Of a DNA stretch of 64,000 nucleotides, positions 28,276 to 61,813 are shown piece after piece (position 1 is the first letter of the stretch; each line of letters begins with the position of its first letter). The notes under the pieces were generated by a model. It was not told where the DNA came from. It was given only the letters and a program-made list of their open reading frames with translations, and ran no database searches. The stretch is from Escherichia phage vB_Ec-G1: the sequence record PQ433349.1. One strand, written 5' to 3'. The position numbers and the translations under genes are program-made.

Positions 28276-28452
28276 ATGTCTGAATTCTTCATAATGGCTT
28301 TCTTAGGGATCTATCTGATTATTAGTGCTGTTGGCTTAATCATGTCTCTAATAGAGGAAATGGGAATTAAGTGGAATTGTGCATTCGGTATAGCTCTTAT
28401 GCTCACTCCAGTTTGGATCTACATTTGCAAATCGGTTGAACTAATTGGTTAA
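28276..28452 (+). CDS. small membrane protein
   Basis: Trimmed to ATG after GGAG RBS; two hydrophobic helices. Confidence 0.4.
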   Translation: MSEFFIMAFLGIYLIISAVGLIMSLIEEMGIKWNCAFGIALMLTPVWIYICKSVELIG

Positions 28453-29239: not shown

Positions 29240-29404
29240 ATGATTTTAAACTTCATCATCAACTTGTGTTTGACATTGGGACTACTTTGTGCAATAGTAT
29301 CCCCTTTGGTTGGTGAATATTGTTCTGAATTGGCGATGTTTATAGTTCTTGGTGCGGCTATTGCTAATATGTTTGTCGCTGCGATTTGTATGTTGTGGGA
29401 ATAG
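29240..29404 (+). CDS. small hydrophobic membrane peptide (~54 aa)
   Basis: Below track cut-off; GGAGAG RBS; almost entirely hydrophobic. Confidence 0.3.
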   Translation: MILNFIINLCLTLGLLCAIVSPLVGEYCSELAMFIVLGAAIANMFVAAICMLWE

Positions 29405-32533: not shown

Positions 32534-33072
32534 GAATAACTGATGAATATGTATTCTTCTTTTCACATAAAGATGTGTTTAGTAATTGGTATATTGCACC
32601 CTTTACAGAAACTGAACCAGGTTACAATGAGACTTTCTGTTGTGTTGAGCAATATATGATGTGGCGTAAGGCTTTGCTGTTCAAGGATCATGCGATTGCA
32701 GCAGCTATCCTTGATCACTCAACTATACGTGACAACGAGAGGAAACAAGCATACTACAAACGTATGGGTCGAGCGGTATCTGGTTTTAATAATGATATGT
32801 GGGAAGAGAACCGTGAGCGTATTGTTATGCGAGGCTTATGCTTGAAATATGTACAGAATCCAGATTTGTATGCAGACTTACACCTTTACCAATACAAAAC
32901 GTTTGTTGAAGCAAGCCCCTACGATAAGGTTTACGGAATTGGAATGGGGATGTATGAACCAGGGGTGCTAAACCCTGCTACCTGGAAAGGGCAGAATCTT
33001 TTAGGCAAATATCATAATAAACTGATCGAAATACTTTTCCCAGACAAAATACCGCAAAGACGATATTTGTGA
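32530..33072 (+). CDS. NADAR (YbiA-like, DUF1768) domain protein
   Basis: 180 aa; F.F...SNWY..PF...F..VEQYMMWRKALLF...MGRAV..F...W...R...M...KY.QNP.L...L.....FVEASPYD..YGIG pattern matches NADAR. Confidence 0.6.
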   Translation: MRITDEYVFFFSHKDVFSNWYIAPFTETEPGYNETFCCVEQYMMWRKALLFKDHAIAAAILDHSTIRDNERKQAYYKRMGRAVSGFNNDMWEENRERIVMRGLCLKYVQNPDLYADLHLYQYKTFVEASPYDKVYGIGMGMYEPGVLNPATWKGQNLLGKYHNKLIEILFPDKIPQRRYL

Positions 33073-33127
33073 TATTTTAACTTTTTTCATTTTTAGAACA
33101 AAGGTGTCACTTTGTAGCACAGAAATA

Positions 33128-33163
33128 AGGCTCCTACAGCACCGTAGAGAGCCTGTTATTTTG
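33128..33163 (+). terminator. rho-independent terminator after NADAR gene
   Basis: GGCTCCTAC-agcacc-GTAGAGAGCC hairpin followed by TGTTATTTTGT. Confidence 0.55.
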
Positions 33164-33169
33164 TCCTAT

Positions 33170-33520
33170 ACAAACCCTTATCTTTTTCAGTTTGCATCAC
33201 TAGGATTCGATCTAAGTGGGTTCCTGAAGGTCTGCCAATAAGATTAAAGGTTATCTCAAATTCCCACTACCTATTATCTCAAAAATCCCTCAAATTATTT
33301 AAACTTTTTAAGAATTTACAAAAGTGAAAGTTGAAAACCAAAATTTAAAGTTTAGGAAAATTATCTTAAAATGTTAGATACAAAACAAAACTCAAAAATC
33401 AAGGAAAATTTTAAAAATTTTGCGCGCCCACAGTATTTAAAGTTTTTTTGCTTTTACAAAAATGAAAGTACAAAAGCAAAATTTAAAGTTTACAAAAATT
33501 TATGCAGATGGGAATGAGAA
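33170..33520. repeat. AT-rich intergenic region with short direct repeats
   Basis: Repeated TTATCTCAAA, AAATTTAAAGTTTA and TTTACAAAARTGAAAGT units; no ORF. Confidence 0.45.
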
Positions 33521-33620
33521 GAGTTCTCATATGGAAATGCAAATGATAATGATTCGCATTTAGGTTTATAAATGAGATTGATTCTTATTCAATAAGGTAA
33601 ATGATAATCATTCTCATTTA
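33512..33620. promoter_or_regulatory. three tandem palindromic operator-like sites (Fur-box-like)
   Basis: ATGAGAAgagTTCTCAT, AAATGATAATgATTCGCATTT and AAATGATAATcATTCTCATTT; resemble the TGATAATnATTATCA Fur-box core. Confidence 0.45.
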
Positions 33621-33878
33621 AAGAATGACGCGCAGGGGCGGTGTTTGTCTCGCGCTCCCGTGTCCCCTCGCCATGTAATAAGAATAACAGATCCAGCCAG
33701 GAAAGCAAGCGATTATTTTATCTTTACATTTCTTTACAAATATATAGCGCCCAGCCTACCGGCGATCAACCTTCCAACCAGTGCCCCCTGGTATGTTAGC
33801 CCCGCCTTTACGCCGTGGGGTGGCGCTTCCTCTTCTGTATGTAAAACAGTATAAGCCCGATCCCTGGGCTTGTCAAGA

Positions 33879-34145
33879 TTATTTTTTGTTTTCTTGCCAG
33901 GATAGGACACCTAACCAAAAATATATATCGCCCCGCGCCCCTGGTGGTATCTTGCTTTCCCCGCCGCCACTGCAAGCCCATAGATAACCATTTGCGAACG
34001 TATCAAAATGATCTATCTCTTCCACCTTATGATCGCCCAGGTTGAGAACGGTTTCAACCTTTAAGCCCGTTGCGCTTGCTACCTGGTGCACCGTGCCGCC
34101 TTGCCAGCCCAATGAGTGCATAAGGTGTAATGTAGTATTTGTCAT
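33879..34145 (-). CDS. hypothetical protein (88 aa) on opposite strand in a GC-rich island
   Basis: Only minus-strand ORF inside the plus block; GC-rich codons; plausible RBS; function unknown. Confidence 0.3.
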   Translation of the reverse strand: MTNTTLHLMHSLGWQGGTVHQVASATGLKVETVLNLGDHKVEEIDHFDTFANGYLWACSGGGESKIPPGARGDIYFWLGVLSWQENKK

Positions 34146-34254
34146 GGTATCGCCCTTTCTTTGATGTGCGCCCTGGTTGGCGCGGTAGAAAGATGATAGC
34201 CCTTTCTTTTATATATAGCAAGCAAAAAGAAAATAAAAAAGATTGAAAAAGTGA

Positions 34255-34313
34255 TTGACGTTCGCCAGGTGGCGGCATAATATTTACCACGTAGGGCGGC
34301 AATGGTGCCGCTC
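34255..34313 (+). promoter_or_regulatory. cassette 1: promoter + stem-loop
   Basis: TTGACG-N17-TAATAT then GGGCGGCaatggtGCCGCTC. Confidence 0.55.
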
Positions 34314-34332
34314 ATTATTTGGAGTTAAAATC

Positions 34333-34530
34333 ATGGCAACATTGCACATTGTGGCGAAAGCTGGACAAATAAACGTGGTAGTAAACGGTTTTACTGAGTT
34401 CAGTCATCCCCAGGATGATCATGAAACGGTTTTATCTTTCATTGATTCACTGTTAGAAATGGGAGTAATTACAGAAGACCAGCACGCTACAAAATGCAAG
34501 CGCGTTAATCAAATTGCAGGGATAGAATAA
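34333..34530 (+). CDS. small hypothetical protein
   Basis: Track ORF 34255..34530 trimmed to ATG downstream of cassette 1 hairpin with GGAG RBS. Confidence 0.5.
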   Translation: MATLHIVAKAGQINVVVNGFTEFSHPQDDHETVLSFIDSLLEMGVITEDQHATKCKRVNQIAGIE

Positions 34531-34536
34531 AAAGTA

Positions 34537-34599
34537 TTGACAACAAACAACAACCTGATAAGATGTATCACATAGGGCGGCGGAATGGTCCAGCCGCTC
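34537..34599 (+). promoter_or_regulatory. cassette 2: promoter + stem-loop
   Basis: TTGACA-N16-TAAGAT then GGGCGGCGGaatggtCCAGCCGCTC. Confidence 0.55.
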
Positions 34600-34622
34600 A
34601 CAACAGAAGAGAGATTATAATC

Positions 34623-34895
34623 ATGGCATCATATAGCGCAACAATGATCGTAGCTGGCACCACTGGTAAACCTATGCGCGGTGGCGGATCTTTCGCTAAT
34701 ATCAATATTGACGGGCGTTTATCCCTGGACGCAGCGATCACCGTGGCGCGGGAAACATTTAAGAAAGAATGTAAATTCAATAAACAAGATTATCTCGGTT
34801 TCGCTATTGAAAAAACCGCGCGTTTTGTTGATTATAAAAGCCCAAAAATGGTTGATACTACACTAAAAGCGCAAGATGTAGCGTTTTTGCTTTAA
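34623..34895 (+). CDS. hypothetical protein
   Basis: Track ORF 34563..34895 trimmed to ATG after cassette 2 leader. Confidence 0.5.
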   Translation: MASYSATMIVAGTTGKPMRGGGSFANINIDGRLSLDAAITVARETFKKECKFNKQDYLGFAIEKTARFVDYKSPKMVDTTLKAQDVAFLL

Positions 34896-34898
34896 GGC

Positions 34899-34954
34899 TT
34901 GACATTAACGAATAATTTGTTAATATGTTACATAAAGCGGGAATAGTTCCCGCT
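34899..34954 (+). promoter_or_regulatory. cassette 3: promoter + stem-loop
   Basis: TTGACA then GCGGGAAtagTTCCCGC hairpin. Confidence 0.5.
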
Positions 34955-34971
34955 ATTTGTAAGGTGGTAGA

Positions 34972-35229
34972 ATGTTTTACATCAAATTAAAAGGTCACGT
35001 GATCGCGTTCAAAGATAACGCTTTTTACAGATTAGCAAAATATGCGTTAATACATCCCCACTATGTTTATATAAGGGGGCGTGATGAAATAAATATCTTT
35101 GATCAAACAACATGCGAGAACATCGAGATCCGCAAGGTTGGCGTACGTGATTATCGTACATCTTTCTACCCTTGCAAGGATTCAGCAAGTCTTTTTAAAG
35201 TATGCCAATTGTTGAAAAAAGGTGGTTAA
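34972..35229 (+). CDS. hypothetical protein (85 aa)
   Basis: Track ORF after cassette 3. Confidence 0.5.
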   Translation: MFYIKLKGHVIAFKDNAFYRLAKYALIHPHYVYIRGRDEINIFDQTTCENIEIRKVGVRDYRTSFYPCKDSASLFKVCQLLKKGG

Positions 35230-35230
35230 T

Positions 35231-35788
35231 ATGGGCCGCGAATATGTGATCCAGTCTTGGGTAAAACATGAAGCAGATGATCCGCGCATCATTCCCGATC
35301 ATCTTATCGATGAATCCACGGGATATAGCGGTGAGCAAATAGGTAACAGATTAGCACGTAGTAACGGCAACGTAAAAGCGCGTTATGTGCGCCCTGGTTG
35401 GCTGGCAAATGGTAACGCTGATTTATCCAGTGCGGAAGATGCGAGCGACGGCGCGAAAGATAATCCTTTGTACAAAGTTGATCCGGCTTTTCGTGTCCTG
35501 GATGAATACCCCAGCAAGATAGCGGCGCTCGATCAGGCCCTGGAAAGTAAGCGCATCACCTGGACCGCTTACAACATGGCAAAAAACGTACTTGATGGTA
35601 AATTGATTCAAGCTGAAAGAAAATTAGCCAAAATTGCAGCCATAGCCCAGGAGGAAGACGAGGAGACAACGGAAGAGGAAGAGTACGAAGAGATCCCGCC
35701 GTTGTTGTGTGTTGATGCTTTTCCTGATTATCAGCCGACAGAGGAAGAAAAAAGGATCGCACTAGAAAACTTTGAAAATAGTCTTTGA
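35231..35788 (+). CDS. hypothetical protein with acidic C-terminus
   Basis: Track ORF trimmed to ATG after AAGGTGG RBS. Confidence 0.5.
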   Translation: MGREYVIQSWVKHEADDPRIIPDHLIDESTGYSGEQIGNRLARSNGNVKARYVRPGWLANGNADLSSAEDASDGAKDNPLYKVDPAFRVLDEYPSKIAALDQALESKRITWTAYNMAKNVLDGKLIQAERKLAKIAAIAQEEDEETTEEEEYEEIPPLLCVDAFPDYQPTEEEKRIALENFENSL

Positions 35789-35843
35789 CATATCGCCGCC
35801 ACTGGCATAATATTTACCACGTAGGGCGGCAATGGTGCCGCTC
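35785..35843 (+). promoter_or_regulatory. cassette 5: promoter + stem-loop
   Basis: TTGACA-N17-TAATAT then GGGCGGCaatggtGCCGCTC (near-identical to cassette 1). Confidence 0.55.
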
Positions 35844-35870
35844 ATAGTGAAATTATGCAAGAGGCTTACA

Positions 35871-35966
35871 ATGATTAATAAAGAAAATAGCTTGACGGTT
35901 GGAACGATTAACGCTATCATTCTAGCCGTTCCATTTTGGATTGTAGTAGCGGCTATTATTTTCTAA
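35871..35966 (+). CDS. small hydrophobic peptide (~31 aa)
   Basis: Below track cut-off; single predicted transmembrane helix; downstream of cassette 5. Confidence 0.3.
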   Translation: MINKENSLTVGTINAIILAVPFWIVVAAIIF

Positions 35967-35974
35967 AAATATTC

Positions 35975-36036
35975 TTGACAACGTTTTTTAATCTGATAAG
36001 ATGTATCACATAGGGCGGCGGAATACTTCCCCGCCA
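35975..36036 (+). promoter_or_regulatory. cassette 6: promoter + stem-loop
   Basis: TTGACA-N16-TAAGAT then GGCGGCGGAAtacTTCCCCGCC hairpin. Confidence 0.5.
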
Positions 36037-36056
36037 AAACAAAAAAGGGTAACACA

Positions 36057-36419
36057 ATGAGCAAGCAAATCAATACTATCATGTTTAATCTGGTATCTTT
36101 CCGCGATGATATGAAAAATTTACCACGTGAAACGGTTGATATTCATGTTTCAGCTTATCGCGCCCTTATTGACATGTTACCGCTAAAACGTGATCAACAT
36201 GCCGCTAATATGATGCTTAATGCTATGCTTAAAAAGATGATTCAAACGGATCTTACTCTGGCGTATGAGTATCAAGGGCGCTTATATGCGACTTACAACA
36301 AAGCGGTACCTGGTCTGGGAAGTACCGAAGAGTTGCACGGCTTAAACCTGGATCAAAACACTTGGGATAGTATGCGCCGCGTTATGGTATGGGCCGAAAG
36401 CGGTAAAATTTACGAATAA
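36057..36419 (+). CDS. hypothetical protein (120 aa)
   Basis: Track ORF after cassette 6. Confidence 0.55.
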   Translation: MSKQINTIMFNLVSFRDDMKNLPRETVDIHVSAYRALIDMLPLKRDQHAANMMLNAMLKKMIQTDLTLAYEYQGRLYATYNKAVPGLGSTEELHGLNLDQNTWDSMRRVMVWAESGKIYE

Positions 36420-36425
36420 AAACGG

Positions 36426-36482
36426 TTGACACTGTTTAAACTTCTGGTATAGTTTATCACGTAGGGCGGCAATGGTGCCGCC
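36426..36482 (+). promoter_or_regulatory. cassette 7: promoter + stem-loop
   Basis: TTGACA-N17-TATAGT then GGGCGGCaatggtGCCGCC. Confidence 0.55.
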
Positions 36483-36502
36483 AACAATAAAAGGTTAACA
36501 TC

Positions 36503-36682
36503 ATGGCTATCATTGCAAAAACTGAGATTATAGGTTTAGATTCGATCCTCCTGGCTTATGAGGAAACTTTAAAAATGTATGTAGTGACCTATGGTGATTA
36601 TGTGCGTGAATACGAATACATTGATCTTGCTTTCGAATGTTACATTCGCCAGGTCAATAAAGCCTATAATGATTATCGTTAA
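36503..36682 (+). CDS. small hypothetical protein (~59 aa)
   Basis: Below track cut-off; follows cassette 7 with RBS. Confidence 0.4.
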   Translation: MAIIAKTEIIGLDSILLAYEETLKMYVVTYGDYVREYEYIDLAFECYIRQVNKAYNDYR

Positions 36683-36701
36683 AAGTTTTAGTCTTATACT
36701 A

Positions 36702-36753
36702 TTGACAATGAGTGATAGTATAAGCATAATAACTTTTATCGGGAATACTTCCC
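36702..36753 (+). promoter_or_regulatory. cassette 8: promoter flanked by palindrome, short stem-loop
   Basis: CTTATACTAtTGACAATGAGTGATAGTATAAG inverted repeat spanning -35; CATAAT -10; GGGAAtacTTCCC hairpin. Confidence 0.45.
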
Positions 36754-36779
36754 ACTAACCAAAAAGAGAGAGTGACACC

Positions 36780-37145
36780 ATGGCTATTAATATCAATGTT
36801 TCCGCTTATGCTACCCTGGCTAACACGGCTAAAATTGAATTATCCAGCATTGAGGCGGTGCATATTAGCGCCCGTCGCTGGTTTCAACGGTCCTACGGTA
36901 ATACATATTTTTCTTTAATGGTTGACGTTGAGATCGGCGGTAAACTGATCGAGGTGGTTAACGTTCCGTTTCAATATGGCTATGGTGATCATTTTGATAC
37001 CGTCGCCCTGGAAGAATTTAGCAAGGTTATTAATATGGAAGGTAAAGAGTTTTCACGTGGCGCGTATCTTTCCCGTTTTTGCCGTGATAATGGGATCACT
37101 GTATACAGTCATGCAAGCGATGTAAAACGTAAAAAAGATTTATAA
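36780..37145 (+). CDS. hypothetical protein (121 aa)
   Basis: Track ORF after cassette 8. Confidence 0.55.
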   Translation: MAININVSAYATLANTAKIELSSIEAVHISARRWFQRSYGNTYFSLMVDVEIGGKLIEVVNVPFQYGYGDHFDTVALEEFSKVINMEGKEFSRGAYLSRFCRDNGITVYSHASDVKRKKDL

Positions 37146-37151
37146 AAAGCA

Positions 37152-37210
37152 TTGACAGCACGAATAAAAAGAGTAAACTGTATTACATAGAGAGCGGGAA
37201 TAGTTCCCGC
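37152..37210 (+). promoter_or_regulatory. cassette 9: promoter + stem-loop
   Basis: TTGACA then GCGGGAAtagTTCCCGC. Confidence 0.5.
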
Positions 37211-37234
37211 CTCACTGAAAAAGAGAGAAAAATC

Positions 37235-37474
37235 ATGGCTAAATCTAAAATGTACAACGGTCACAAAAACAAAACTCATTGGAATGTAAGCCTGTGGATT
37301 AATAACGATGAGGGATTGTATCGGTTTGCATTGGGATTGATCAATGAGTGCGGTAATAAAGATCAGGCGGCTGATTTAATGTGCTACCGTTTGAAACAGG
37401 ATGGAATCACTACAACGCCAGACGGCTTTAAGTATAGTAAAACTGCAATCCGCGCCGCTATGGTTGGAATGTAA
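37235..37474 (+). CDS. hypothetical protein (79 aa)
   Basis: Track ORF after cassette 9. Confidence 0.5.
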   Translation: MAKSKMYNGHKNKTHWNVSLWINNDEGLYRFALGLINECGNKDQAADLMCYRLKQDGITTTPDGFKYSKTAIRAAMVGM

Positions 37475-37483
37475 TAAAAACAG

Positions 37484-37544
37484 TTGACAACGTTTAAAAT
37501 TAGTGTAAGATGTATCACATAGGGCGGGAAATGGTTTCCCGCTC
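37484..37544 (+). promoter_or_regulatory. cassette 10: promoter + stem-loop
   Basis: TTGACA-N16-TAAGAT then GGGCGGGAAatggtTTCCCGCTC. Confidence 0.55.
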
Positions 37545-37568
37545 ACAACAGAAGAGAGATTAAAGATT

Positions 37569-37796
37569 ATGGCTATCAATATTGTTCGCGTATCCGGTAC
37601 CGTTGGTAACTCCCAGGTTGTAGCAGTTATCACAGAGAAGAAAGGGGATGATCTTCACTCTTCCTTGAATAGCTGGGCGGTCGCTAACTTCGGGCAATGG
37701 TCGAGCGTTGAGTACATCGAATCCTACCAGGTGCCGACGATTAGCCTAACCGATCTCAACGTTGATCGCTTGTTGTGCCTGGATGAATTAATCTGA
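37569..37796 (+). CDS. hypothetical protein (75 aa)
   Basis: Track ORF after cassette 10. Confidence 0.5.
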   Translation: MAINIVRVSGTVGNSQVVAVITEKKGDDLHSSLNSWAVANFGQWSSVEYIESYQVPTISLTDLNVDRLLCLDELI

Positions 37797-37806
37797 AAAA
37801 AGATTA

Positions 37807-37868
37807 TTGACACCGGAAAGAAAAAGAGTAGAATATATTACATAGGGCGGCGGAATGGTCCACCGCTC
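37807..37868 (+). promoter_or_regulatory. cassette 11: promoter + stem-loop
   Basis: TTGACA then GGGCGGCGGaatggtCCACCGCTC. Confidence 0.55.
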
Positions 37869-37891
37869 ACAACAGAAGAGAGATTATCACG

Positions 37892-38107
37892 ATGGCTAAT
37901 ATCCGCACTTTACTGAAAAATGCAAGTCAAGTTTTATTTTCAGATGACGAGTATTTCAATAAAGACATTACAGGCGTGAAAAATTTAAAAGACGTGAAGG
38001 ATGTTATCGGTATCCGTGGATCTTTACGTAAGGGCGATTACTACGGTAACAAGGTGCAATATAAACTGTCAAAGGATTACAATTTTACTTTGACAATTAT
38101 TTCATAA
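37892..38107 (+). CDS. hypothetical protein (71 aa)
   Basis: Track ORF after cassette 11. Confidence 0.5.
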   Translation: MANIRTLLKNASQVLFSDDEYFNKDITGVKNLKDVKDVIGIRGSLRKGDYYGNKVQYKLSKDYNFTLTIIS

Positions 38108-38113
38108 AACCGC

Positions 38114-38173
38114 TTGCAATACTGCAAAAATAAAGTAAACTATATTCATCAAGGCGGGGAATGGTCCGCCGCC
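38114..38173 (+). promoter_or_regulatory. cassette 12: promoter + stem-loop
   Basis: TTGCAA-like -35 then GGCGGGGaatggtCCGCCGCC hairpin. Confidence 0.45.
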
Positions 38174-38197
38174 TAACAAAGAGAAGAGGAAAACATC

Positions 38198-38365
38198 ATG
38201 ATCACTTTCGCTACCCGTGAAGCCGCTCGCAACGTTGCACGTAAAGTTAACGCCGCCAACCTGGGCGCTACGCTTAAAGCCCCGGTGAAAGATGAATCAG
38301 GCAAATGGATCTTCCCTGGTCTGCGTCATGCTGACAAGTTAGGTACTTTAAGCCTTAAAAAATAA
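38198..38365 (+). CDS. small basic protein (~55 aa) starting MITFA
   Basis: Below track cut-off; shares MITFA N-terminus with next ORF. Confidence 0.4.
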   Translation: MITFATREAARNVARKVNAANLGATLKAPVKDESGKWIFPGLRHADKLGTLSLKK

Positions 38366-38368
38366 TCG

Positions 38369-38403
38369 TTGACTTTTCGTTATAGCGCCTTACAATGGGC
38401 GCT
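38369..38403 (+). promoter_or_regulatory. cassette 13 variant: promoter with palindrome overlapping -10
   Basis: TTGACT-N16-TACAAT; TATAGCGCC...GGCGCTATA inverted repeat spans the -10. Confidence 0.45.
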
Positions 38404-38439
38404 ATAGAGAAGAGAAACCACTGCTAACAAGGAAACATC

Positions 38440-38661
38440 ATGATCACTTTCGCTATTGTCGCCGTTGTCGCTGGTCAGGTTTACGTAAACGATACATTCA
38501 CCACAGAAGACAAGGCCGCAGGAGACATAACCGCCGTTTACAATGAGTGCAAGGCAGTAGAAAGGATGTTAGCGCCTTGTATGCTAATGAGTGAACGCCA
38601 GGACGGGATAACAGTATTTACTAACATTGAAACAGGGTACCAAATGGTAGTAACAAAATAA
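38440..38661 (+). CDS. hypothetical protein (73 aa) starting MITFA
   Basis: Track ORF. Confidence 0.5.
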   Translation: MITFAIVAVVAGQVYVNDTFTTEDKAAGDITAVYNECKAVERMLAPCMLMSERQDGITVFTNIETGYQMVVTK

Positions 38662-38664
38662 AGC

Positions 38665-38723
38665 TTGACACGGATTTAATTTTTAGTAAACTGTTACACG
38701 TAGGGCGGGAATAGTTCCCGCTC
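38665..38723 (+). promoter_or_regulatory. cassette 14: promoter + stem-loop
   Basis: TTGACA then GGGCGGGAAtagTTCCCGCTC. Confidence 0.55.
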
Positions 38724-38740
38724 AAAAAGAGAGAAAGACC

Positions 38741-39094
38741 ATGAAAGCACAAAATGCAATTAAAGAGTACATCCTTGCCGCTATCGATTTTAATGATTAC
38801 GGTATTACAACCGAAAAAGAGAAGATCGCGGAATTGATGCGCCGTTTTAATTCCGAGTACTGGTACCCTGATAACCAATCACGTTTTAATTATAGTATTG
38901 TTAAAGCACTTGCATCATGGTTACAAGGCTTGCCATCAGATATCAATATCGCTTTCGAATATTGGGAAATTGATCGCCTGTTAACATCCTGGGGATACAT
39001 TAAAGAGAATAGCAGCGATGATAAAATCCAACGAGAAAGGGAAAATTATTGGCTTTATATTGCAGGCGTGATCCTTGCTTGCTCTTATGAATGA
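38741..39094 (+). CDS. hypothetical protein (117 aa)
   Basis: Track ORF after cassette 14. Confidence 0.55.
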   Translation: MKAQNAIKEYILAAIDFNDYGITTEKEKIAELMRRFNSEYWYPDNQSRFNYSIVKALASWLQGLPSDINIAFEYWEIDRLLTSWGYIKENSSDDKIQRERENYWLYIAGVILACSYE

Positions 39095-39100
39095 TAAACC

Positions 39101-39154
39101 TTGACAATTTTACAAAACAGTTTAAATTAACAATATAGCGGCAATGGTGCCGCT
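39101..39154 (+). promoter_or_regulatory. cassette 15: promoter + stem-loop
   Basis: TTGACA then AGCGGCaatggtGCCGCT. Confidence 0.5.
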
Positions 39155-39173
39155 CATATGAAGAGGAAACAAA

Positions 39174-39320
39174 ATGAATACATCTAATCGCGCAGAAAAA
39201 ATTCAATCTTCCAAGATCCGCAAGGCCTGGAACGAGGAAGTGATCCGCAAAGGCGACAAGCGCAATAAAACAAAGCGCGGGAAGAGTGACAAATATAATT
39301 GGATGGATTTAGAGGATTAA
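39174..39320 (+). CDS. small basic protein (~48 aa)
   Basis: Below track cut-off; RBS AGAGGAAA; followed by terminator. Confidence 0.4.
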   Translation: MNTSNRAEKIQSSKIRKAWNEEVIRKGDKRNKTKRGKSDKYNWMDLED

Positions 39321-39327
39321 CATAACA

Positions 39328-39355
39328 AGGGCGCACCAAGCGCCCTTTCTTTTTA
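39328..39355 (+). terminator. rho-independent terminator
   Basis: AGGGCGC-acca-AGCGCCCT hairpin followed by TTCTTTTTAT. Confidence 0.65.
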
Positions 39356-39375
39356 TATACAGAGGATAAACAAAG

Positions 39376-39561
39376 ATGACTTTAAACGAGCTTAAAACAG
39401 CCTACAACGCAACATTAAAAATAGCCGTGCGTTACCGTGATGCGTATGGTTTTATCGCGCAGGGCGTGATCCTGGGCTTTTCTGACGATGGTTTGATCTA
39501 TGTTGATGCACATCACAACAAGGTTAAACCTGAAAACGTCATTAACATAAAATATCTTTAA
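39376..39561 (+). CDS. small hypothetical protein (61 aa)
   Basis: Track ORF. Confidence 0.45.
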   Translation: MTLNELKTAYNATLKIAVRYRDAYGFIAQGVILGFSDDGLIYVDAHHNKVKPENVINIKYL

Positions 39562-39567
39562 AAACGG

Positions 39568-39627
39568 TTGACACCATAACCGGACCTGTTAAACTGTATT
39601 ACATCAGGCGGGGGAATAGTTCCCCAC
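39568..39627 (+). promoter_or_regulatory. cassette 16: promoter + stem-loop
   Basis: TTGACA then GGCGGGGGAAtagTTCCCC. Confidence 0.5.
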
Positions 39628-39647
39628 CATACAAAAAGGTAAATATT

Positions 39648-39854
39648 ATGATCACCGCAAAACAAGAAAAAATTATTATCGACGTTGCAGCCGTTGCCGC
39701 TATTGCTATTATTGGATCTTATTATGATACCCGTTTCCCGTCGGCTATGCATGAGATCGCCGCCGTTGCATCAGTTGGCGTGCTGTTTTACGTTGGTAAA
39801 CGCTATTTATCACCAATGATTAACAAGCTAACACCGTGGAAAAATAAAGGTTGA
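39648..39854 (+). CDS. small membrane protein (68 aa)
   Basis: Track ORF; hydrophobic segments. Confidence 0.5.
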   Translation: MITAKQEKIIIDVAAVAAIAIIGSYYDTRFPSAMHEIAAVASVGVLFYVGKRYLSPMINKLTPWKNKG

Positions 39855-39905
39855 TCCTGCTTTATATTGTGTTATAGTTATCGTGTAGGGCGGCAATGGT
39901 GCCGC
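39851..39905 (+). promoter_or_regulatory. cassette 17: promoter + stem-loop
   Basis: TTGATC -35 then GCGGCAatggTGCCGC hairpin. Confidence 0.45.
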
Positions 39906-39926
39906 GCCCCCTTTGAGGATGAAATC

Positions 39927-40211
39927 ATGAGTAAAGCTAACACCGTGCTAATGTTTTCCTTGGTTAATGATGCCGCTTACTTGTCCAACATGACGCAGGA
40001 GGGTAACACATTAACGGCAACATTCACCAATAAGCTTAATCGAGTGATCATCATCTCACTGAAAACAATTAGTAAAGGCGTTTACTCGTTAGCTTATCAT
40101 TGGATCACTGATACCAACGAGACAAGCCAGGACTATAGCGCCCCTTTCCCTGAATCAATGGCACGGGAGATCATCGCCGCCGTTGTAAATGATGGTTTGT
40201 TTACTGCATAA
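39927..40211 (+). CDS. hypothetical protein
   Basis: Track ORF 39867..40211 trimmed to ATG after hairpin/RBS. Confidence 0.5.
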   Translation: MSKANTVLMFSLVNDAAYLSNMTQEGNTLTATFTNKLNRVIIISLKTISKGVYSLAYHWITDTNETSQDYSAPFPESMAREIIAAVVNDGLFTA

Positions 40212-40229
40212 AATAATTTAGAAAAAGGC

Positions 40230-40286
40230 TTGCAATCATTTTGAGATAGTGTATATTTAATTCATAGGGCGGCGGGAATAGTTCCC
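40230..40286 (+). promoter_or_regulatory. cassette 18: promoter + stem-loop
   Basis: TTGCAA-like -35 then GGCGGGAAtagTTCCC. Confidence 0.45.
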
Positions 40287-40309
40287 AAGGCAAACGAGAG
40301 GATTACACG

Positions 40310-40429
40310 ATGAGCAAGTACACAGTAGAATACACGGTACAAAATCCGGCAGTATCCGAAGGTAAAAAGATGACATTTGCCATCAGTATAATCGCTTTCG
40401 TTGTCACTATCTTATTAATCATCTTATAA
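40310..40429 (+). CDS. small hydrophobic peptide (~39 aa)
   Basis: Below track cut-off; C-terminal transmembrane helix; RBS GAGAGGA. Confidence 0.3.
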   Translation: MSKYTVEYTVQNPAVSEGKKMTFAISIIAFVVTILLIIL

Positions 40430-40439
40430 GGTGCGTACC

Positions 40440-40601
40440 ATGAAAACAACAGACATTATCAAAGAGATCGCCCTTGCCGCTGACGTTGAGATCGAGGAAG
40501 TGATCGCGCTCAATCTTACAGAAGAAGACTTGCGCAATTATGAAGCGGAAAGCGTGAAAGCAAGCGGCGCGGTCCTGGCATATAATCCGGCTAACAAGTA
40601 A
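40440..40601 (+). CDS. small acidic protein (~53 aa)
   Basis: Below track cut-off; same direction, short spacing. Confidence 0.3.
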   Translation: MKTTDIIKEIALAADVEIEEVIALNLTEEDLRNYEAESVKASGAVLAYNPANK

Positions 40602-40610
40602 GGGGATAAC

Positions 40611-40760
40611 ATGAATCCGAAAGATATGCAAGCATGGAAAGGGTACGACGATCTAAGCGCCTTGCGCAATAAGTCAAGCCGTAACCTTAGACGGTTAGAA
40701 GCAAAGAAAAAGAAAAACAGTTTGACAAGTCCGCTTAATCTGGTAAAGTGTATCTCGTAG
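40611..40760 (+). CDS. small basic protein (~49 aa)
   Basis: Below track cut-off; GGGGA RBS; 3' end overlaps next cassette. Confidence 0.25.
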   Translation: MNPKDMQAWKGYDDLSALRNKSSRNLRRLEAKKKKNSLTSPLNLVKCIS

Positions 40761-40778
40761 GGCGGCAATGATGCCGCT
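40722..40778 (+). promoter_or_regulatory. cassette 19: promoter + stem-loop
   Basis: TTGACA then GGGCGGCaatgatGCCGCTC. Confidence 0.55.
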
Positions 40779-40798
40779 CACAAGAAGAGAGAAAAATC

Positions 40799-41083
40799 AT
40801 GAAGATCACAAAAAGCCTAACTAATTATGCAGCACGTCGCGGATTATGCTTAACCGTTGAAAACTTAGGGAAAGAAGATTTTTTGTGTTTTTGGGAGCTT
40901 GAAAATGATTGCGAGTGGATGTTTTCTTATTCTATCTGCGAAGATCAAAACGGTTGTTTGTTAACCTGGCGCGGTAATATCTATTTACCGCAAGAAATTA
41001 AAGAGGAATTACCAGGTACGATCATGACAGAGAGACAGCTTAAGGAAGTGATCAATTTTGTAGGGCAAAACATTAAAAAATAA
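40799..41083 (+). CDS. hypothetical protein (94 aa)
   Basis: Track ORF after cassette 19. Confidence 0.55.
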   Translation: MKITKSLTNYAARRGLCLTVENLGKEDFLCFWELENDCEWMFSYSICEDQNGCLLTWRGNIYLPQEIKEELPGTIMTERQLKEVINFVGQNIKK

Positions 41084-41084
41084 T

Positions 41085-41146
41085 TTGACAGCAGGCAAAC
41101 AACGTAGTAAAGTTTATCACATAGGGCGGGAAATGGTTTCCCGCTC
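41085..41146 (+). promoter_or_regulatory. cassette 20: promoter + stem-loop
   Basis: TTGACA then GGGCGGGAAatggtTTCCCGCTC. Confidence 0.55.
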
Positions 41147-41167
41147 ACAGCAGAAGAGAGACACATC

Positions 41168-41338
41168 ATGATCCCGACTATGTTTTATGTATCGCGCAAA
41201 GGTCACAATATTTTTTGGTCTGAAGATTTAAATGAAGCTATGACGTTTGCCCGTGATCGTGTTGCTATCGGTGGCGTTAATATCACCGTAACCGATGAAA
41301 ACGGCATTGAATACTATAACGGCGACGATGAAGAGTAA
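41168..41338 (+). CDS. small hypothetical protein (~56 aa)
   Basis: Below track cut-off; follows cassette 20; followed by AAGCTGTATT...AATACAGCTT hairpin. Confidence 0.4.
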   Translation: MIPTMFYVSRKGHNIFWSEDLNEAMTFARDRVAIGGVNITVTDENGIEYYNGDDEE

Positions 41339-41397
41339 TTAACAACCTGGAAGCTGTATTTTTACAATACAGCTTAAAAGGTGTAGTAAAATAATTC

Positions 41398-41467
41398 TTG
41401 ACAATAGTTTGTTACTTGATAGAATGTATCACGTAGGGCGGGGCAATAAGGCAACGCCCATTAATGA
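41398..41467 (+). promoter_or_regulatory. cassette 21: promoter + stem-loop
   Basis: TTGACA then GGGCG...CGCCC hairpin with larger loop. Confidence 0.45.
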
Positions 41468-41477
41468 GGGTAGAATC

Positions 41478-41582
41478 ATGTTAGAGAAAATTTTCACGGT
41501 TGTAATAGTAGGCCTGGCGTTATCGGTTGGAGTGGTTGCAACTATGGCTAACATGATCCTATCTTCCCACGGTATCGATTAA
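41478..41582 (+). CDS. small hydrophobic peptide (~34 aa)
   Basis: Below track cut-off; single transmembrane helix. Confidence 0.3.
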   Translation: MLEKIFTVVIVGLALSVGVVATMANMILSSHGID

Positions 41583-41592
41583 GGTGAAACAG

Positions 41593-41808
41593 ATGATCAC
41601 GAACAAAACAGGCAAAACAGAATTTTTACGCGGCTTACAAGTCGGTAAGCCTGAGATCTGGCATTGCAGCAAGTCGGCGCATAACGAAATGAAAGACTTT
41701 ACCGCTACTTTACAACGTGTTAAAATATCTATCACACAGAAAAAAGCCTTGTTAGTAGTAGAAAACGAGATCCCGCAAACTATTATTATTGTCGAGCGTA
41801 CAGCATGA
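41593..41808 (+). CDS. hypothetical protein
   Basis: Track ORF 41584..41808 trimmed to ATG after AAGGTG RBS. Confidence 0.5.
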   Translation: MITNKTGKTEFLRGLQVGKPEIWHCSKSAHNEMKDFTATLQRVKISITQKKALLVVENEIPQTIIIVERTA

Positions 41809-42191
41809 AAACAGAAATCATTATTGAAATCATCAACGGTTATAAAGAAGCCTTTATTTTTGCTGAATCAGCCAGGGATCACGAAGGTAATTTTATTGAT
41901 AACTTAGACGATTATGATTTTTCAGATCAAGCCCATCAGCGGATCGCCCAGGATGTAACAGCCTTTATTAATGCTAATCTTGCCGCTATCTCTGAGGCAA
42001 TGAGCGACGGCGCAACAGCCAACCAGATCGGGAATGATTTACATTTTACCCGTAACGGTCACGGCGTAGGATTTTGGGATCGCCCTGAAATATACACCAC
42101 TAACACGGCGAACCGCCTAACCAATGCAGCTAAGTTTATGCCGAATGTGTCGGCTTACATTGGTGAAGATAATTTGATTTATATTGAATAA
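41805..42191 (+). CDS. hypothetical acidic protein (128 aa)
   Basis: Track ORF, overlapping start/stop with upstream gene. Confidence 0.55.
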   Translation: MKTEIIIEIINGYKEAFIFAESARDHEGNFIDNLDDYDFSDQAHQRIAQDVTAFINANLAAISEAMSDGATANQIGNDLHFTRNGHGVGFWDRPEIYTTNTANRLTNAAKFMPNVSAYIGEDNLIYIE

Positions 42192-42197
42192 AAAGTA

Positions 42198-42254
42198 TTG
42201 ACACAGATCGCCAGTGTGCTAATATTTACCACGTAGGGCGGCAATGGTGCCGCC
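42198..42254 (+). promoter_or_regulatory. cassette 23: promoter + stem-loop
   Basis: TTGACA-N17-TAATAT then GGGCGGCaatggtGCCGCC. Confidence 0.55.
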
Positions 42255-42272
42255 GATAACGAGGAAAGTAAA

Positions 42273-42572
42273 ATGGAAACTATCGCTATTGTTACCGTAG
42301 AAAAACTGGTTGTTGGTGATGTATTCGCGTTAATGGTGCCTAACAGCAGCAAGCTGGGCGCTTATGAAGTGATGGACCATAAAAATGAATCATTTGGCGA
42401 CGGTTGCACAATGGCGGTAAGATCCTTAAAGGATGGAATCATCCGCCAGGCTAACTGGCACAAAGGGAATCAAGTCGGTTTAATATCAGCTAATTTCTTG
42501 CCAGAAGAGCAAACATTAGACCAACTATCAGGCGGTAAGACGTTAGCCGAACTACTGGAAACAGCGATCTAA
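42273..42572 (+). CDS. hypothetical protein (99 aa)
   Basis: Track ORF after cassette 23; followed by GGGGCGgcaaCGCCCC hairpin. Confidence 0.55.
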   Translation: METIAIVTVEKLVVGDVFALMVPNSSKLGAYEVMDHKNESFGDGCTMAVRSLKDGIIRQANWHKGNQVGLISANFLPEEQTLDQLSGGKTLAELLETAI

Positions 42573-42625
42573 TCAACAAAGGGGCGGCAACGCCCCATTA
42601 AACGCAATAGGAAGAGGATAGACAC

Positions 42626-42916
42626 ATGAAAAAGATGATCGCAGTAGTTGCCCTGGTTGTTGGTATTAACGCGCCTGTACTGGCTAATGAGTTGCCAGAA
42701 TCCATCACGCTAACCGATATCCACGCAATAAACCGGATCGGCGTTAATTATCGCCTATGCCTTGCCGCTAAAACTTTTAAGGACGGCGAAACAGAATATC
42801 ACGGATTCGAGGGCATCCGCTGCGGTGAGCTTGCACGCGACCTTAAGGAAGATCCAGACCTTGAGGCCATACCGATGACCGTAAACGGTAAAGCCTACGT
42901 AAGCCGCCAACAATGA
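42626..42916 (+). CDS. secreted hypothetical protein
   Basis: 96 aa; signal peptide MKKMIAVVALVVGINAPVLA. Confidence 0.55.
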   Translation: MKKMIAVVALVVGINAPVLANELPESITLTDIHAINRIGVNYRLCLAAKTFKDGETEYHGFEGIRCGELARDLKEDPDLEAIPMTVNGKAYVSRQQ

Positions 42917-43047
42917 GAAAGGTAATCATCACAATGGGGATCATAGTAGCGACGCTGGCGCTTATCCCCTTTATAGTTGAATATGTGCTGATAAGTGTTG
43001 TCCTGGTAGTCAGTGACCTATTGGAAACGGTTGGCAACTGGTTTTAA
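42913..43047 (+). CDS. small hydrophobic peptide (~44 aa)
   Basis: Below track cut-off; ATGA overlap with upstream stop; hydrophobic throughout. Confidence 0.3.
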   Translation: MRKVIITMGIIVATLALIPFIVEYVLISVVLVVSDLLETVGNWF

Positions 43048-43225
43048 AAATAAGAAAAACAGGACTTGTTTTTGTTCTGTTTTTTGTTATACTTATTGAA
43101 CGGGCGGCACCTGGAAGCAGGGGGAAGATAATCACCGGAAGACCCCGCTATATATTGATAACTAACGCCTATCAAACAACAAAACATCAAAGGAATAAAC
43201 TATCAAATCTTTACAATTCTACCTA

Positions 43226-43286
43226 TTGACACCGGATCACGCTTACATTATTATTTATCACGTAGGGCGAGCAATACAGCAAGCCC
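43226..43286 (+). promoter_or_regulatory. cassette 24: promoter + stem-loop
   Basis: TTGACA then GGGC...GCCC hairpin. Confidence 0.45.
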
Positions 43287-43304
43287 ACAAAGAGGAAAAT
43301 AAAA

Positions 43305-43672
43305 TGAGCAAATCAGCAATTAAAGCACTTGAAAAAGCACAAGAAGTGATCGCAACGTCAACCACTGGCGCAAAGGTTAATCTTGTTGGTTATCTGACAG
43401 ATGAAACTATCCGTAAAAATTGGCGTAATGCTGATTTACTGGCTTGCTTATTGATTAATAGTGTCGCTAATGCTTTCCAGTGTGAAACAGTCGAGAGCCT
43501 GGAAGAAAACTTGTTCGACAATATGGATCAAGCCATTGAAATATATATTCAATCCAACTTAGATAGCTGGAACAGTAAAACATGGCCTGACAGCTTACGC
43601 AATACAACTGATCAACTGATCCGCCTTGCGGTGATGGTTGAACGCGATAACGTTTACAACAGCACAAAGTAA
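43305..43672 (+). CDS. hypothetical protein
   Basis: Track ORF 43226..43672 trimmed to ATG after RBS GAGGAAA. Confidence 0.55.
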
Positions 43673-43692
43673 GATTATACAAGGGGCGCACT

Positions 43693-43720
43693 AAGCGCCC
43701 TTTATTTTTGCCCGAACAAT
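43693..43720 (+). terminator. rho-independent terminator closing the cassette array
   Basis: AGGGGCGC-acta-AGCGCCCT hairpin followed by TTATTTTTG. Confidence 0.65.
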
Positions 43721-44688
43721 GTTGATAGCTTAAACCTATGAAAAACCGACACAGAACAAAATTGCATAATTTGCGCTATCGAGCTAATCAACCATTAAAC
43801 GAATAACCATACATCCCAGGGAAACAGGTTGTTAGAGAGCTATTTAGAGCGGTTAAAATCGATCTACAACCAACAACAAACCATCAAAAACACCCTTTTA
43901 CCTCCTTTCTAGTGCAATGATAACCATTATCATCTACCTATGATTATCTATTCAATATAAGTGCATAACTATAATGTTGATAATAGTTCGCAACAACTAA
44001 CCCACCAACAACCTAAAACAATAAGCAAACTAATCATAATCAAAGGAATAATAGCAAGATGATTGATAACGACAAACAATCAAACCATGATGAATATTAA
44101 GCAAGATAACGATAACACGACAAAACAACCAACTAACGAACAATAACAAACGAAACCATTAAAAGATCAACTATTAGCAAAATAGTGCCTATTGCCATAA
44201 TAGTGACTTAATGAAATCATTACAAAATGAATCATTCCAAGGATCATCATTAGCACGCTACGCCGGACACGTAGCGAGCTAATAATAAGCCAACTACACC
44301 CCAACAATCATAACCATCGGTGACGGTTATTTCTTGTTACTGCGTAGCTTGCAATAATTGCAAGCGTAATGACGCTTACACTTATTGCGCTGGCTTATTA
44401 TTAGCATTATATGTAATTACCAAGATCATAACATTAGCGCAATAACAATAATCATTGTGGTAATTACAAGATGAAATCATTAGCAAGATGAATAATTGCA
44501 CGTAGCAACATGAGCGAATAGCGACAGGTTGCATAGTGTGCACATAGTGTATAAACATACAAGAAAATAAAGGCTAATCTTTTGGGGGCGAATACTATCG
44601 CGTAGCGATATGTTGAGCACCTTCTCTTAAACGTAAATAAAATCAGAAAATTCTTGATTTATTTTAGTTTTTATGTTAATAAACGTTT

Positions 44689-44709
44689 AAATAATAATCA
44701 TTCTCATAT
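44689..44709. promoter_or_regulatory. Fur-box-like operator site
   Basis: AAATAATAATCATTCTCATAT resembles the sites at 33541-33620. Confidence 0.35.
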
Positions 44710-44867
44710 AAATAATAGTCTGCTTGTCATGAGCGGGATTAGTTGACATTGTTCCGTCATATGATGAAGTTGCCAAACCATTGATAAATAAGTGTTTGTG
44801 TGATTTATAATCAAGTGGCCCACCTTGTCGCTATGTTGGCATGAGCCTTGCATAAGTCATTGAATAC

Positions 44868-44888
44868 GAATGATAATTATTCTCATTC
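44868..44888. promoter_or_regulatory. Fur-box-like near-perfect palindrome
   Basis: GAATGATAAT-T-ATTCTCATTC, 10-1-10 inverted repeat with one mismatch. Confidence 0.45.
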
Positions 44889-45228
44889 GCATGATATTTG
44901 GGAATTGTCGCTGCGTGGACCTGACGGCCCGAAAATTCGCGTTAAGCACTTCTTACGTATGCGCCATGATTTTTGCCATATGATATTGATTCTATTAGAT
45001 ATTCTTGCCATGATTGCCATGAAACAGGGTGTCCCGAAATAATCTCTCCCCGTAGATATTTTGGGTTACTTTTTATACAAGAGTGGGGTGTCAAAAATAA
45101 TCGGTATATATGGGATAATTGATAGGAATCCCCTATGATAATTCGATTGTAATTCCCTAAGATTGATCGTATGATGTTGGTGATTGATGATTGCCATGAA
45201 AGATGGCTAACGATGAGAGGAGATTGTC

Positions 45229-45603
45229 ATGCAAGAGAGTAAAAATGTTCCGTTGAGTAGTGCAACATTGCTTCGCTTCTATAAAGCATGGATTGCCAAC
45301 TATCCTGCAATGAATCGCACAACGAGTGGCTTATGTGGTTGTCTGGTAGATTATGTAAATGATTTTGTTGGTGAGACAACCAGAGAAGAAGATAGAAGAT
45401 GGCGGGATAGTTTGTTGGACCGTTTGAAATATGAAATGAGGAAACAATTTACATGTGCAGGGCTGGACTATAATCTTCCGTTCAATGCAGATTGCATGGA
45501 TTACCTTTCAGAGTGTATAAACTTGGCGTGTCATACCAACACGTTACGTCTTCAGTGGGTGAAAGACAGAATTGAAGATGCAAATAATGCTTGCATTGAA
45601 TAA
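45229..45603 (+). CDS. hypothetical protein, member of 5-copy paralog family
   Basis: 124 aa; shares FY..W...GLC, LPF and R..WVKDR pattern with four other ORFs. Confidence 0.55.
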   Translation: MQESKNVPLSSATLLRFYKAWIANYPAMNRTTSGLCGCLVDYVNDFVGETTREEDRRWRDSLLDRLKYEMRKQFTCAGLDYNLPFNADCMDYLSECINLACHTNTLRLQWVKDRIEDANNACIE

Positions 45604-55519: not shown

Positions 55520-55548
55520 GAGAATACAGCAATGGTTTAGGAGTGGTT

Positions 55549-61720: not shown

Positions 61721-61813
61721 ATGGTTTCATTTATCGTAGGCGTAGTTGTAGGCTATCTTATTAACAAATATCAAGACGTTATCACGGCAAAAGTAAAAGA
61801 CATTTTAGACTAA
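61721..61813 (+). CDS. small hydrophobic peptide (~30 aa)
   Basis: Below track cut-off; AAGGAGAAA RBS; single transmembrane helix. Confidence 0.3.
   Translation: MVSFIVGVVVGYLINKYQDVITAKVKDILD

Follow-up and report, generated by a model that had tools for sequence, protein, structure and literature searches.

Membrane microprotein genes in the promoter-hairpin cassette array of a Phapecoctavirus-like Escherichia phage, with a putative role at the host envelope

We analyzed a 64,000-nt stretch of DNA from Escherichia phage vB_Ec-G1 (PQ433349.1; hereafter the window), focusing on six very short open reading frames (ORFs), named here by their first base, which a first-pass annotation had described as single transmembrane (TM) helices with good ribosome-binding sites (RBSs). 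All six are present on the + strand with ATG starts, and five of them (35871, 40310, 41478, 42913, and 29240) have the size and hydrophobicity of the small-membrane-protein class, with a maximum Kyte-Doolittle hydropathy in a 17-residue window (KD17) of 2.4 to 3.2, where values of at least 2.4 were taken as TM-like. Four single-helix peptides of 31 to 44 amino acids (aa; KD17 2.69 to 3.21) form the core of this set, as had been claimed. ORF 35871 (35871 to 35966; KD17 2.89) encodes a 31-aa microprotein that opens with MINKENSLTVGTIN and continues as a TM helix to its C terminus, and ORF 40310 (40310 to 40429; KD17 3.21) encodes a 39-aa microprotein with a 20-residue N-terminal motif (Y.V.Y....A..EG.K, usually with NPA) and a C-terminal TM helix; both are predicted to be tail-anchored, and their C termini (...VVAAIIF and ...TILLIIL, respectively) lie inside the helix. 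ORF 41478 (41478 to 41582; KD17 2.70) specifies 34 aa with an N-terminal TM helix and a conserved tail, ATMAN.ILSS.GI(G/D), which ends here in SSHGID. The 44-aa product of ORF 42913 (42913 to 43047; KD17 2.69) starts with MRK, followed by a long hydrophobic stretch broken by E22 and a conserved acidic tail, VLVVSDLLETVG..F, here SDLLETVGNWF. The single-helix description failed for the other two ORFs: the 54-aa product of ORF 29240 (29240 to 29404), which belongs to a separate operon and precedes a gene for an AAA ATPase, is a membrane protein with four Cys and two hydrophobic helices forming a hairpin around a conserved GEYCSE loop, and ORF 61721 (61721 to 61813; 30 aa), with about 14 hydrophobic N-terminal residues, a charged amphipathic tail and a KD17 of only 1.58, is a real conserved gene that encodes no clear TM peptide and lacks the hydrophobicity of small membrane proteins.

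The supposition of good RBSs held for five of the six ORFs, which are preceded by Shine-Dalgarno (SD) matches of 4 to 5 nt, and did not hold for ORF 42913, which has no SD sequence (upstream gtaagccgccaaca) and whose ATG shares bases with the stop of the preceding gene (ATGA); in relatives the ATG lies 5 nt past that stop. Given this overlap and the missing SD sequence, ORF 42913 is likely translated by coupling to the upstream gene.

Chance does not account for these ORFs. Within the + strand gaps between non-overlapping ORFs of at least 60 aa at 28 to 62.7 kb (29 gaps, 7.7 kb), we observed 5 ORFs of at least 25 aa with a KD17 of at least 2.4, compared to 0.12 ± 0.35 in 500 shuffles (maximum 2), and in a recount TM-like peptides made up 5 of the 15 gap ORFs with an SD sequence and none of the 26 without one (Fisher p about 0.005). 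Across the + strand of the whole 35-kb region, seven ORFs of 25 to 59 aa pass the hydrophobicity threshold, five of which are the ORFs described here. Conservation was assessed in 11 to 13 related loci, which provided 4 to 11 unique, mutually related sequences per ORF. Every ORF is intact in these loci, with the same ATG and the same or near-same length, one frameshift excepted. Rough pooled pairwise ratios of nonsynonymous to synonymous differences (pN/pS) were 0.20 for 35871, 0.25 for 41478, 0.35 for 42913, and 0.43 for 29240 in frame, with a value of 0.55 for 40310 that is saturated by distant alleles, compared to 0.6 to 3.9 in the two shifted frames. Variable sites concentrate at third codon positions (for 35871, 5/5/20 by codon position). 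The 35871 peptide also recurs downstream of three unrelated sequences, and loci L006 and L007 carry it within another gene order, which indicates that the conserved unit is the coding sequence. By these patterns of substitution and retention, the four core ORFs and 29240 are genuine protein-coding genes under purifying selection, and the view that the phage encodes membrane microproteins is borne out by their conserved lengths and starts and by the recurrence of the same peptide behind different leaders. The one frameshift occurs in Serratia phage KKP_3264 (L046, about 6292 to 6400), where the 41478 orthologue has one extra T in a T-run at codons 5 to 6; this is probably a sequencing error, or else marks a pseudogene.

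Bases 35000 to 44000 of the window match about 260 phage records, the best of which is about 95% identical over 99% of the query. The matched records are E. coli myophages of about 150 kb in the genus Phapecoctavirus (Stephanstirmvirinae), with vB_EcoM-P3322, Mt1B1_P17, tuntematon, and Ro121c4YLVW among the best-matching relatives, and on these alignments the window is that of a Phapecoctavirus-like (phAPEC8 group) E. coli myophage. Searching 50,697 phage records with tblastn recovered 35871 in 111, 40310 in 72, 41478 in 227, and 42913 in 63 of them, nearly all from Stephanstirmvirinae or Vequintavirinae, with Vequintavirus among the 41478 records. The peptides are 82 to 100% identical within Phapecoctavirus genomes and about 55 to 64% identical to their counterparts in Vequintavirus Bas51/WalterGehring, which holds same-length orthologues of 41478 (55% identity) and 42913 (64%). 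Same-length alleles of 40310 with about 40% identity (MKIIPVQYSVINPAYEEGRK plus a hydrophobic tail) occur in L006, L007, and L046, a relative of 35871 with 52% identity occurs in Klebsiella phage 05F01, and phiWec188 carries a homologue of 29240 with about 45% identity and near-same length (53 aa as annotated). In two related loci, L005 (about 752 to 835) and L045 (about 11985 to 12068), a further very short hydrophobic ORF (MSTTSLFFAINFIPGFRAALEIILWTL in L005, with a single residue changed in L045) precedes the 35871 homologue in place of the promoter cassette described below, and another gene lies 10 nt downstream of that homologue. Near-identical copies of these coliphage genes also appear in records labelled as Campylobacter, Acinetobacter, Pseudomonas, and Serratia phages, and some of these host labels look doubtful.

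Although the ORFs fall below the threshold of the ORF track used for the first-pass annotation, the obscurity that this implied was overstated. All of them are annotated as coding sequences (CDSs) in some GenBank relatives, as "hypothetical protein" or "membrane protein" (35871 in L001 to L004 and L047; 61721, which is 33 aa in relatives, in L003 and L004), and for five of the six the entire peptide matches a PHROG family. Full-length matches to PHROG hidden Markov models were found for 40310 (phrog_10979, "membrane protein," E 2.5e-20), 41478 (phrog_14631, E 5.3e-22), 42913 (phrog_16005, E 7.5e-28), and 29240 (phrog_27459, E 1.4e-38), and the 30-aa peptide of 61721 covers profile positions 1 to 45 of 49 in phrog_11666 (E 5.1e-11); 35871 matched no PHROG family. 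Annotation is inconsistent, with many records leaving 41478 and 42913 unannotated. In Escherichia phage NHEP1 (L044, 19148 to 19635), the 42913 homologue is annotated as a 62-aa CDS from an upstream start, and the CDS annotated upstream of it (19148 to 19453) resembles a wrong-frame call; no homologue of the gene at 42626 that precedes ORF 42913 in the window was detected there. A search of 5.8 billion proteins returned 24 clusters for 42913, all with at least 77% identity, and a single cluster for 29240, named "TMhelix containing protein." With HMMER against 1.84 billion representatives, 40310 matched only two proteins, and hence no remote homologue lends it a function; one of the two (P0067) is a 1558-aa predicted protein that is probably a gene-calling artefact across many small phage genes. 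A query of IMG/VR with the neighbouring 128-aa protein identified three syntenic relatives, and the other 36 loci belong to unrelated phages without the microproteins. Sequence searches of the PDB with three of the peptides gave no match even at E = 10, and nothing significant was found for the ORFs in Pfam, NCBIfam, or PADLOC. The five genes are thus lineage-restricted ORFans that are already catalogued in databases with no assigned function.

Each of the four core peptides combines a hydrophobic anchor with a segment of 12 to 20 residues that is much better conserved than the anchor. Between distant pairs, identity outside the helix reaches 10/14, 10/20, 11/14, and 16/20 in the four peptides, whereas in the rest of the same pairs, in the same order, it is 5/17, 4/19, 7/20, and 12/24, with hydrophobicity kept. 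Compared to the Bas51 orthologues, the tail of 41478 is 11/14 identical and its helix 7/20, and the tail of 42913 is 16/20 identical; distant same-length homologues stay hydrophobic with just 4 to 7 identical helix residues.

The core genes lie in an array of promoter cassettes. Between 34255 and 43260, about 21 near-identical + strand copies of one composite element occur, consisting of TTGACA, a spacer of 16 to 17 nt and TAnnnT, then CAC(G/A)TAGGGCGGC-loop-GCCGC, and then a purine-rich RBS and ATG. Promoter-like sites in the interval 33000 to 45500 number 64, compared to 34.7 ± 6.3 in shuffles. The hairpins of these cassettes are predicted to fold at -14 to -17 kcal/mol with the RBS left unpaired. 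ORF 35871 is the sole ORF of its cassette, behind a sigma-70-type promoter (35785 to 35813, + strand; TTGACA-17-TAATAT, 10/12 matches) and a GC-rich 5' leader hairpin, GGGCGGCAATGGTGCCGCTC (35824 to 35843, + strand; 8-bp stem, 54-nt leader at -14.7 kcal/mol), an element common to most cassettes; the next promoter starts at 35975, 9 nt past the stop codon. ORFs 40310 and 41478 are the first ORFs of their cassettes. The 41478 operon has a sigma-70-type promoter with an extended -10 TG (41398 to 41425, + strand; TTGACA-16-TAGAAT, 11/12 matches) and a leader hairpin at 41436 to 41459 (+ strand; 49-nt leader at -16.8 kcal/mol, z = -3.8), and the promoter and hairpin of 40310 are degenerate (9/12 matches; -7.8 kcal/mol, z = -0.4). 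ORF 42913 comes second after a hairpin and RBS (42581 to 42625) and is followed directly by a weak terminator-like hairpin with a T-run (43054 to 43085, + strand; 12 pairs, 3 of them G-C). Scanning the whole window for Rfam families and tRNAs gave no hits, which leaves a reading of the cassettes as RNA genes unsupported.

Comparable arrangements have been described in the T4-type phages RB49 and phi1, where cassettes of a promoter-early stem-loop (PeSL) and ORFans mediate modular shuffling (Arbiol et al. 2010, PMC2839356; Comeau et al. 2014, PMC4122927). As with PeSLs, a strong sigma-70 promoter and a GC stem-loop recur here beside small ORFans in a hyperplastic region, and cassettes are gained, lost, and reordered between close relatives, among which both content and order vary (in L006 and L007, the order of 35871, 36057, and 35222 is changed). 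In contrast to PeSLs, the lineage here is Stephanstirmvirinae and Vequintavirinae rather than T4-type, the motif differs (CACGTAGGGCGGC...GCCGC), and the hairpin lies downstream of the -10 box, which places it within the transcript, at its predicted 5' end.

Three of the core genes adjoin small genes, two of which may encode partners. ORF 40310 is followed after 10 nt by a gene for a 53-aa soluble acidic protein (40440 to 40601, + strand; phrog_35944), which adjoins the closer 40310 variants (L001 to L005, L045, L047, and L050); no homologue was detected beside the divergent variants in L006, L007, and L046. Downstream of 41478, with a 10-nt spacer, lies a gene for a 71-aa soluble protein (41593 to 41808, + strand; phrog_5988) that adjoins 41478 in 10 of the 11 loci holding it, Bas51 included; in L007, 41478 is kept although the 71-aa gene is absent. 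ORF 42913 is preceded by a gene for a 96-aa protein (42626 to 42916, + strand; phrog_9845) with a Sec-type signal peptide (MKKMIAVVALVVGINAPVLA|NE) and two Cys that are nearly invariant in the alignment, and a protein of 94 to 96 aa takes this position in 10 of 11 loci, again including Bas51. An AlphaFold2 model of the 96-aa protein, built on a shallow alignment of 15 sequences, was too poor for use (pLDDT 46, pTM 0.33). Both of the latter pairs are common to Stephanstirmvirinae and Vequintavirinae: in Bas51/WalterGehring (L048, 1501 to 2343) they stand side by side as a 34-aa TM peptide with a 71-aa protein and a 94-aa secreted protein with a 44-aa TM peptide, and order, spacing, and the lengths of the 41478 and 42913 peptides are retained. 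Bas51 is a phage of the BASEL collection and offers a tractable system for testing both modules. The 35871 homologue of Klebsiella phage 05F01 comes immediately after a protein whose signal sequence is lipoprotein-like (MKKLIIALTLVSC...).

The surrounding region is a dense array of small + strand genes from about 27.9 to 62.7 kb, and the GC skew becomes positive at 28 kb. The same layout is described for the related phage rV5 (PMC3606486), with "88 mainly small ORFs" and a "non-coding" box free of ORFs. For the neighbouring proteins, scans of PHROG and Pfam returned solely families of "unknown function," bar an AAA ATPase, an endonuclease, and a DNA invertase. Further small membrane proteins are encoded here on the + strand that the first-pass annotation had not listed, namely a 58-aa two-helix protein (28276 to 28452) with a full-length match to phrog_22639 and proteins of 68 aa (39648 to 39854; phrog_30003) and 69 aa (59020 to 59229; phrog_24123). 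A second small protein with a clear Sec-type signal peptide (MKKIIVGLLLLIASLGTANA|SQ) is encoded at 51001 to 51399 (+ strand), and with two such signal peptides, here and at 42626 to 42916, the phage appears to export proteins to the periplasm; a published study of related phages had reported none (PMC10698182). At 55543 to 56220 (+ strand), within the small-gene region of a virulent phage, lies a gene for a 225-aa protein of the DNA invertase/serine recombinase families (phrog_125, E 1e-32). Directly 3' of the cassette array, 1.18 kb (43672 to 44848) contain no credible ORF, tRNA, or Rfam match and include short imperfect tandem repeats at 44171 to 44240. The counterpart of this stretch is left unannotated in relatives (L003, 29231 to 30853; L004, 28361 to 29917) and may be compared with the "non-coding" box of rV5; it could be an origin, a packaging site, or a genome end.

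We propose, with moderate confidence, that the five genes encode early accessory microproteins of the inner membrane, which work by binding to partner proteins or to proteins of the host envelope. They would be lineage-restricted ORFans, carried as cargo by the hyperplastic early region of a genome of the Phapecoctavirus type. The sigma-70 promoter, 5' GC hairpin, and unpaired purine-rich RBS upstream suggest that 35871, 40310, and 41478 would be transcribed by host RNA polymerase immediately after infection, with 42913 made by translational coupling to the preceding gene. The hydrophobic anchor would then insert into the host inner membrane, with 40310, 41478, and 42913 oriented N-in by the positive-inside rule and 35871 and 40310 tail-anchored. 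There, each peptide may bind specifically to a phage partner, a host envelope protein, or both, tethering or modulating it; the candidate phage partners are the 71-aa protein for 41478 and the secreted 96-aa protein for 42913. Speculatively, the resulting role would be that of a dispensable host-takeover accessory in envelope remodelling, in exclusion of superinfecting phages, or in countering membrane-associated defence. The anatomy of the peptides, with a TM anchor and a conserved motif outside it, and the pairing of 42913 with a secreted protein are consistent with such envelope-directed partner binding.

Bacterial precedents exist for this mode of action, as small membrane proteins are known to act by binding larger membrane proteins, with UgtS and UgtL forming a small-plus-larger bicistronic pair (PMC12648545). 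The core peptides resemble MgrB, AcrZ, KdpF, SafA, and UgtS (with UgtL) in having 30 to 50 aa, one TM helix, and short conserved outside segments; unlike these proteins, they are phage-encoded behind early-type phage promoters, and no sequence similarity is shared. A likeness between the N termini of 41478 (MLEK...) and AcrZ (MLEL...) had no statistical support and was dropped. More specifically, the two gene pairs could constitute two-component early envelope modules, with the microprotein as anchor or regulator of its partner, that belong to an uncharacterised class of exclusion or anti-defence systems aimed at a host inner-membrane or periplasmic target; we put this forward as a tentative and somewhat doubtful possibility.

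Several points weigh against the explanation proposed here. The predicted topologies follow solely from hydropathy and the positive-inside rule, the division of 42913 into motif and anchor is less clean because most of its conserved "tail" is hydrophobic too, and where phage genes are so tightly packed, adjacency is only a weak sign of physical interaction. PHROG, Pfam, NCBIfam, PADLOC, and PDB searches gave no homology to any characterised protein. Furthermore, 40310, with its degenerate promoter and hairpin, may depend on read-through, and the pN/pS values are rough, coming from small sets of related sequences. Literature searches for transcriptomic, Ribo-seq, or proteomic data on early genes of Phapecoctavirus or rV5 came back empty, as they did for localisation or phenotypes of the present genes; the "proteomics" of PMC10698182 was done in silico.

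One specific case within the favoured explanation is that the peptides are dedicated to superinfection exclusion and block the DNA entry or the receptor function of incoming phages, analogous to Imm and Sp of T4, Llp of T5, and gp15 of HK97, all of which are early-expressed small envelope proteins of virulent or temperate coliphages. The putative early expression and inner-membrane location would suit such a function, as would the conserved pairing of 42913 with a secreted, presumably periplasmic protein and the position of the 05F01 homologue of 35871 directly after a protein with a lipoprotein-like signal sequence. Like Imm and Sp, the products of 42913 and 42626 would combine a membrane protein with one that faces the periplasm. 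However, Imm and Sp are larger, at 83 aa (with two TM helices) and 97 aa, respectively, searches of Pfam, PHROG, NCBIfam, and PADLOC revealed no relation to known exclusion families (Imm, Sp, Cor, Llp, and SieA/B) nor any homology to gp15, and the model of the secreted partner (pLDDT 46) is too poor for comparison. Exclusion, which the first-pass annotation had raised together with inhibition of host membrane complexes, is indistinguishable by sequence from other envelope-directed roles, and we judge it unlikely as a dedicated function.

Alternatively, the peptides could be generic membrane-perturbing toxins, similar to the type I toxins Hok, Ibs, TisB, and DinQ, that depolarise the membrane to shut down the host. 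Their size (<60 aa) and single helix are as in type I toxins (PMC12648545), and early expression would suit host shut-off. Generic insertion would lead one to expect conservation of the helices, and the opposite was found: the best-conserved parts lie in motifs outside the membrane, which argues for specific binding over generic membrane damage. In addition, the strong constitutive promoters and open predicted RBSs here differ from the sequestered SD sequences and antisense RNAs of type I systems (Hok/Gef, Ibs, TisB, DinQ, and Ldr), although antisense promoters were covered by a general scan only, and no match to a toxin family (Hok/Gef, Ibs, Ldr, TisB, ShoB, or DinQ) was found in NCBIfam or Pfam. 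A toxin function is thus quite unlikely.

We also considered that the ORFs may be leaders whose translation merely opens or couples a downstream gene (41478 for 41593 and 40310 for 40440), or chance ORFs in the cassette RNA. A gap of 10 nt separates both 41478 and 40310 from the following gene on the same transcript, as expected of leaders, but no gene stands between 35871 and the next promoter, 41478 is retained in L007 despite the missing 71-aa gene, and purifying selection acts at the amino-acid level, with hydrophobicity and motifs conserved at 40 to 55% identity. With chance excluded by the shuffles and no Rfam match, such an origin is very unlikely. Least credible of all is the holin-like role raised in the first-pass annotation, by which the peptides would accumulate in the membrane as holins, antiholins, or lysis-timing peptides and trigger or delay lysis: holins are likewise small, hydrophobic phage-encoded membrane proteins, 29240 and 28276 are two-helix hairpins of 54 to 58 aa, and the holin of rV5 is itself uncertain (the candidate gp129 has 78 aa and two TM domains, and its gene number falls in the transcription unit of genes 82 to 163, as does the small-ORF array), but holins usually show a basic charged C-terminal tail, late expression, and endolysin linkage, and here the chains of 35871 and 40310 stop within the helix, 41478 and 42913 carry neutral to acidic tails, sigma-70 promoters that point to early timing precede the four core ORFs, no endolysin is found among the approximately 30 scanned + strand proteins of the window, and PHROGs, Pfam, and NCBIfam yielded no holin family match (the best being phrog_24402 at E = 0.19, for 61721 only), making this most improbable.

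Here, we provide evidence for conserved membrane microprotein genes in a Phapecoctavirus-like coliphage. The existence of such genes is unsurprising, as their families are catalogued and restricted to one phage group, and their sequences indicate no new mechanism; the sole mildly novel lead is the conservation of peptide-plus-partner modules across two phage subfamilies. Gene callers often miss small phage membrane proteins, as illustrated by the several GenBank relatives that omit 41478 and 42913. Together, the real genes and the two conserved partner modules constitute concrete candidates for functional screens, and small phage membrane proteins of this kind may plausibly supply factors directed at the host envelope.

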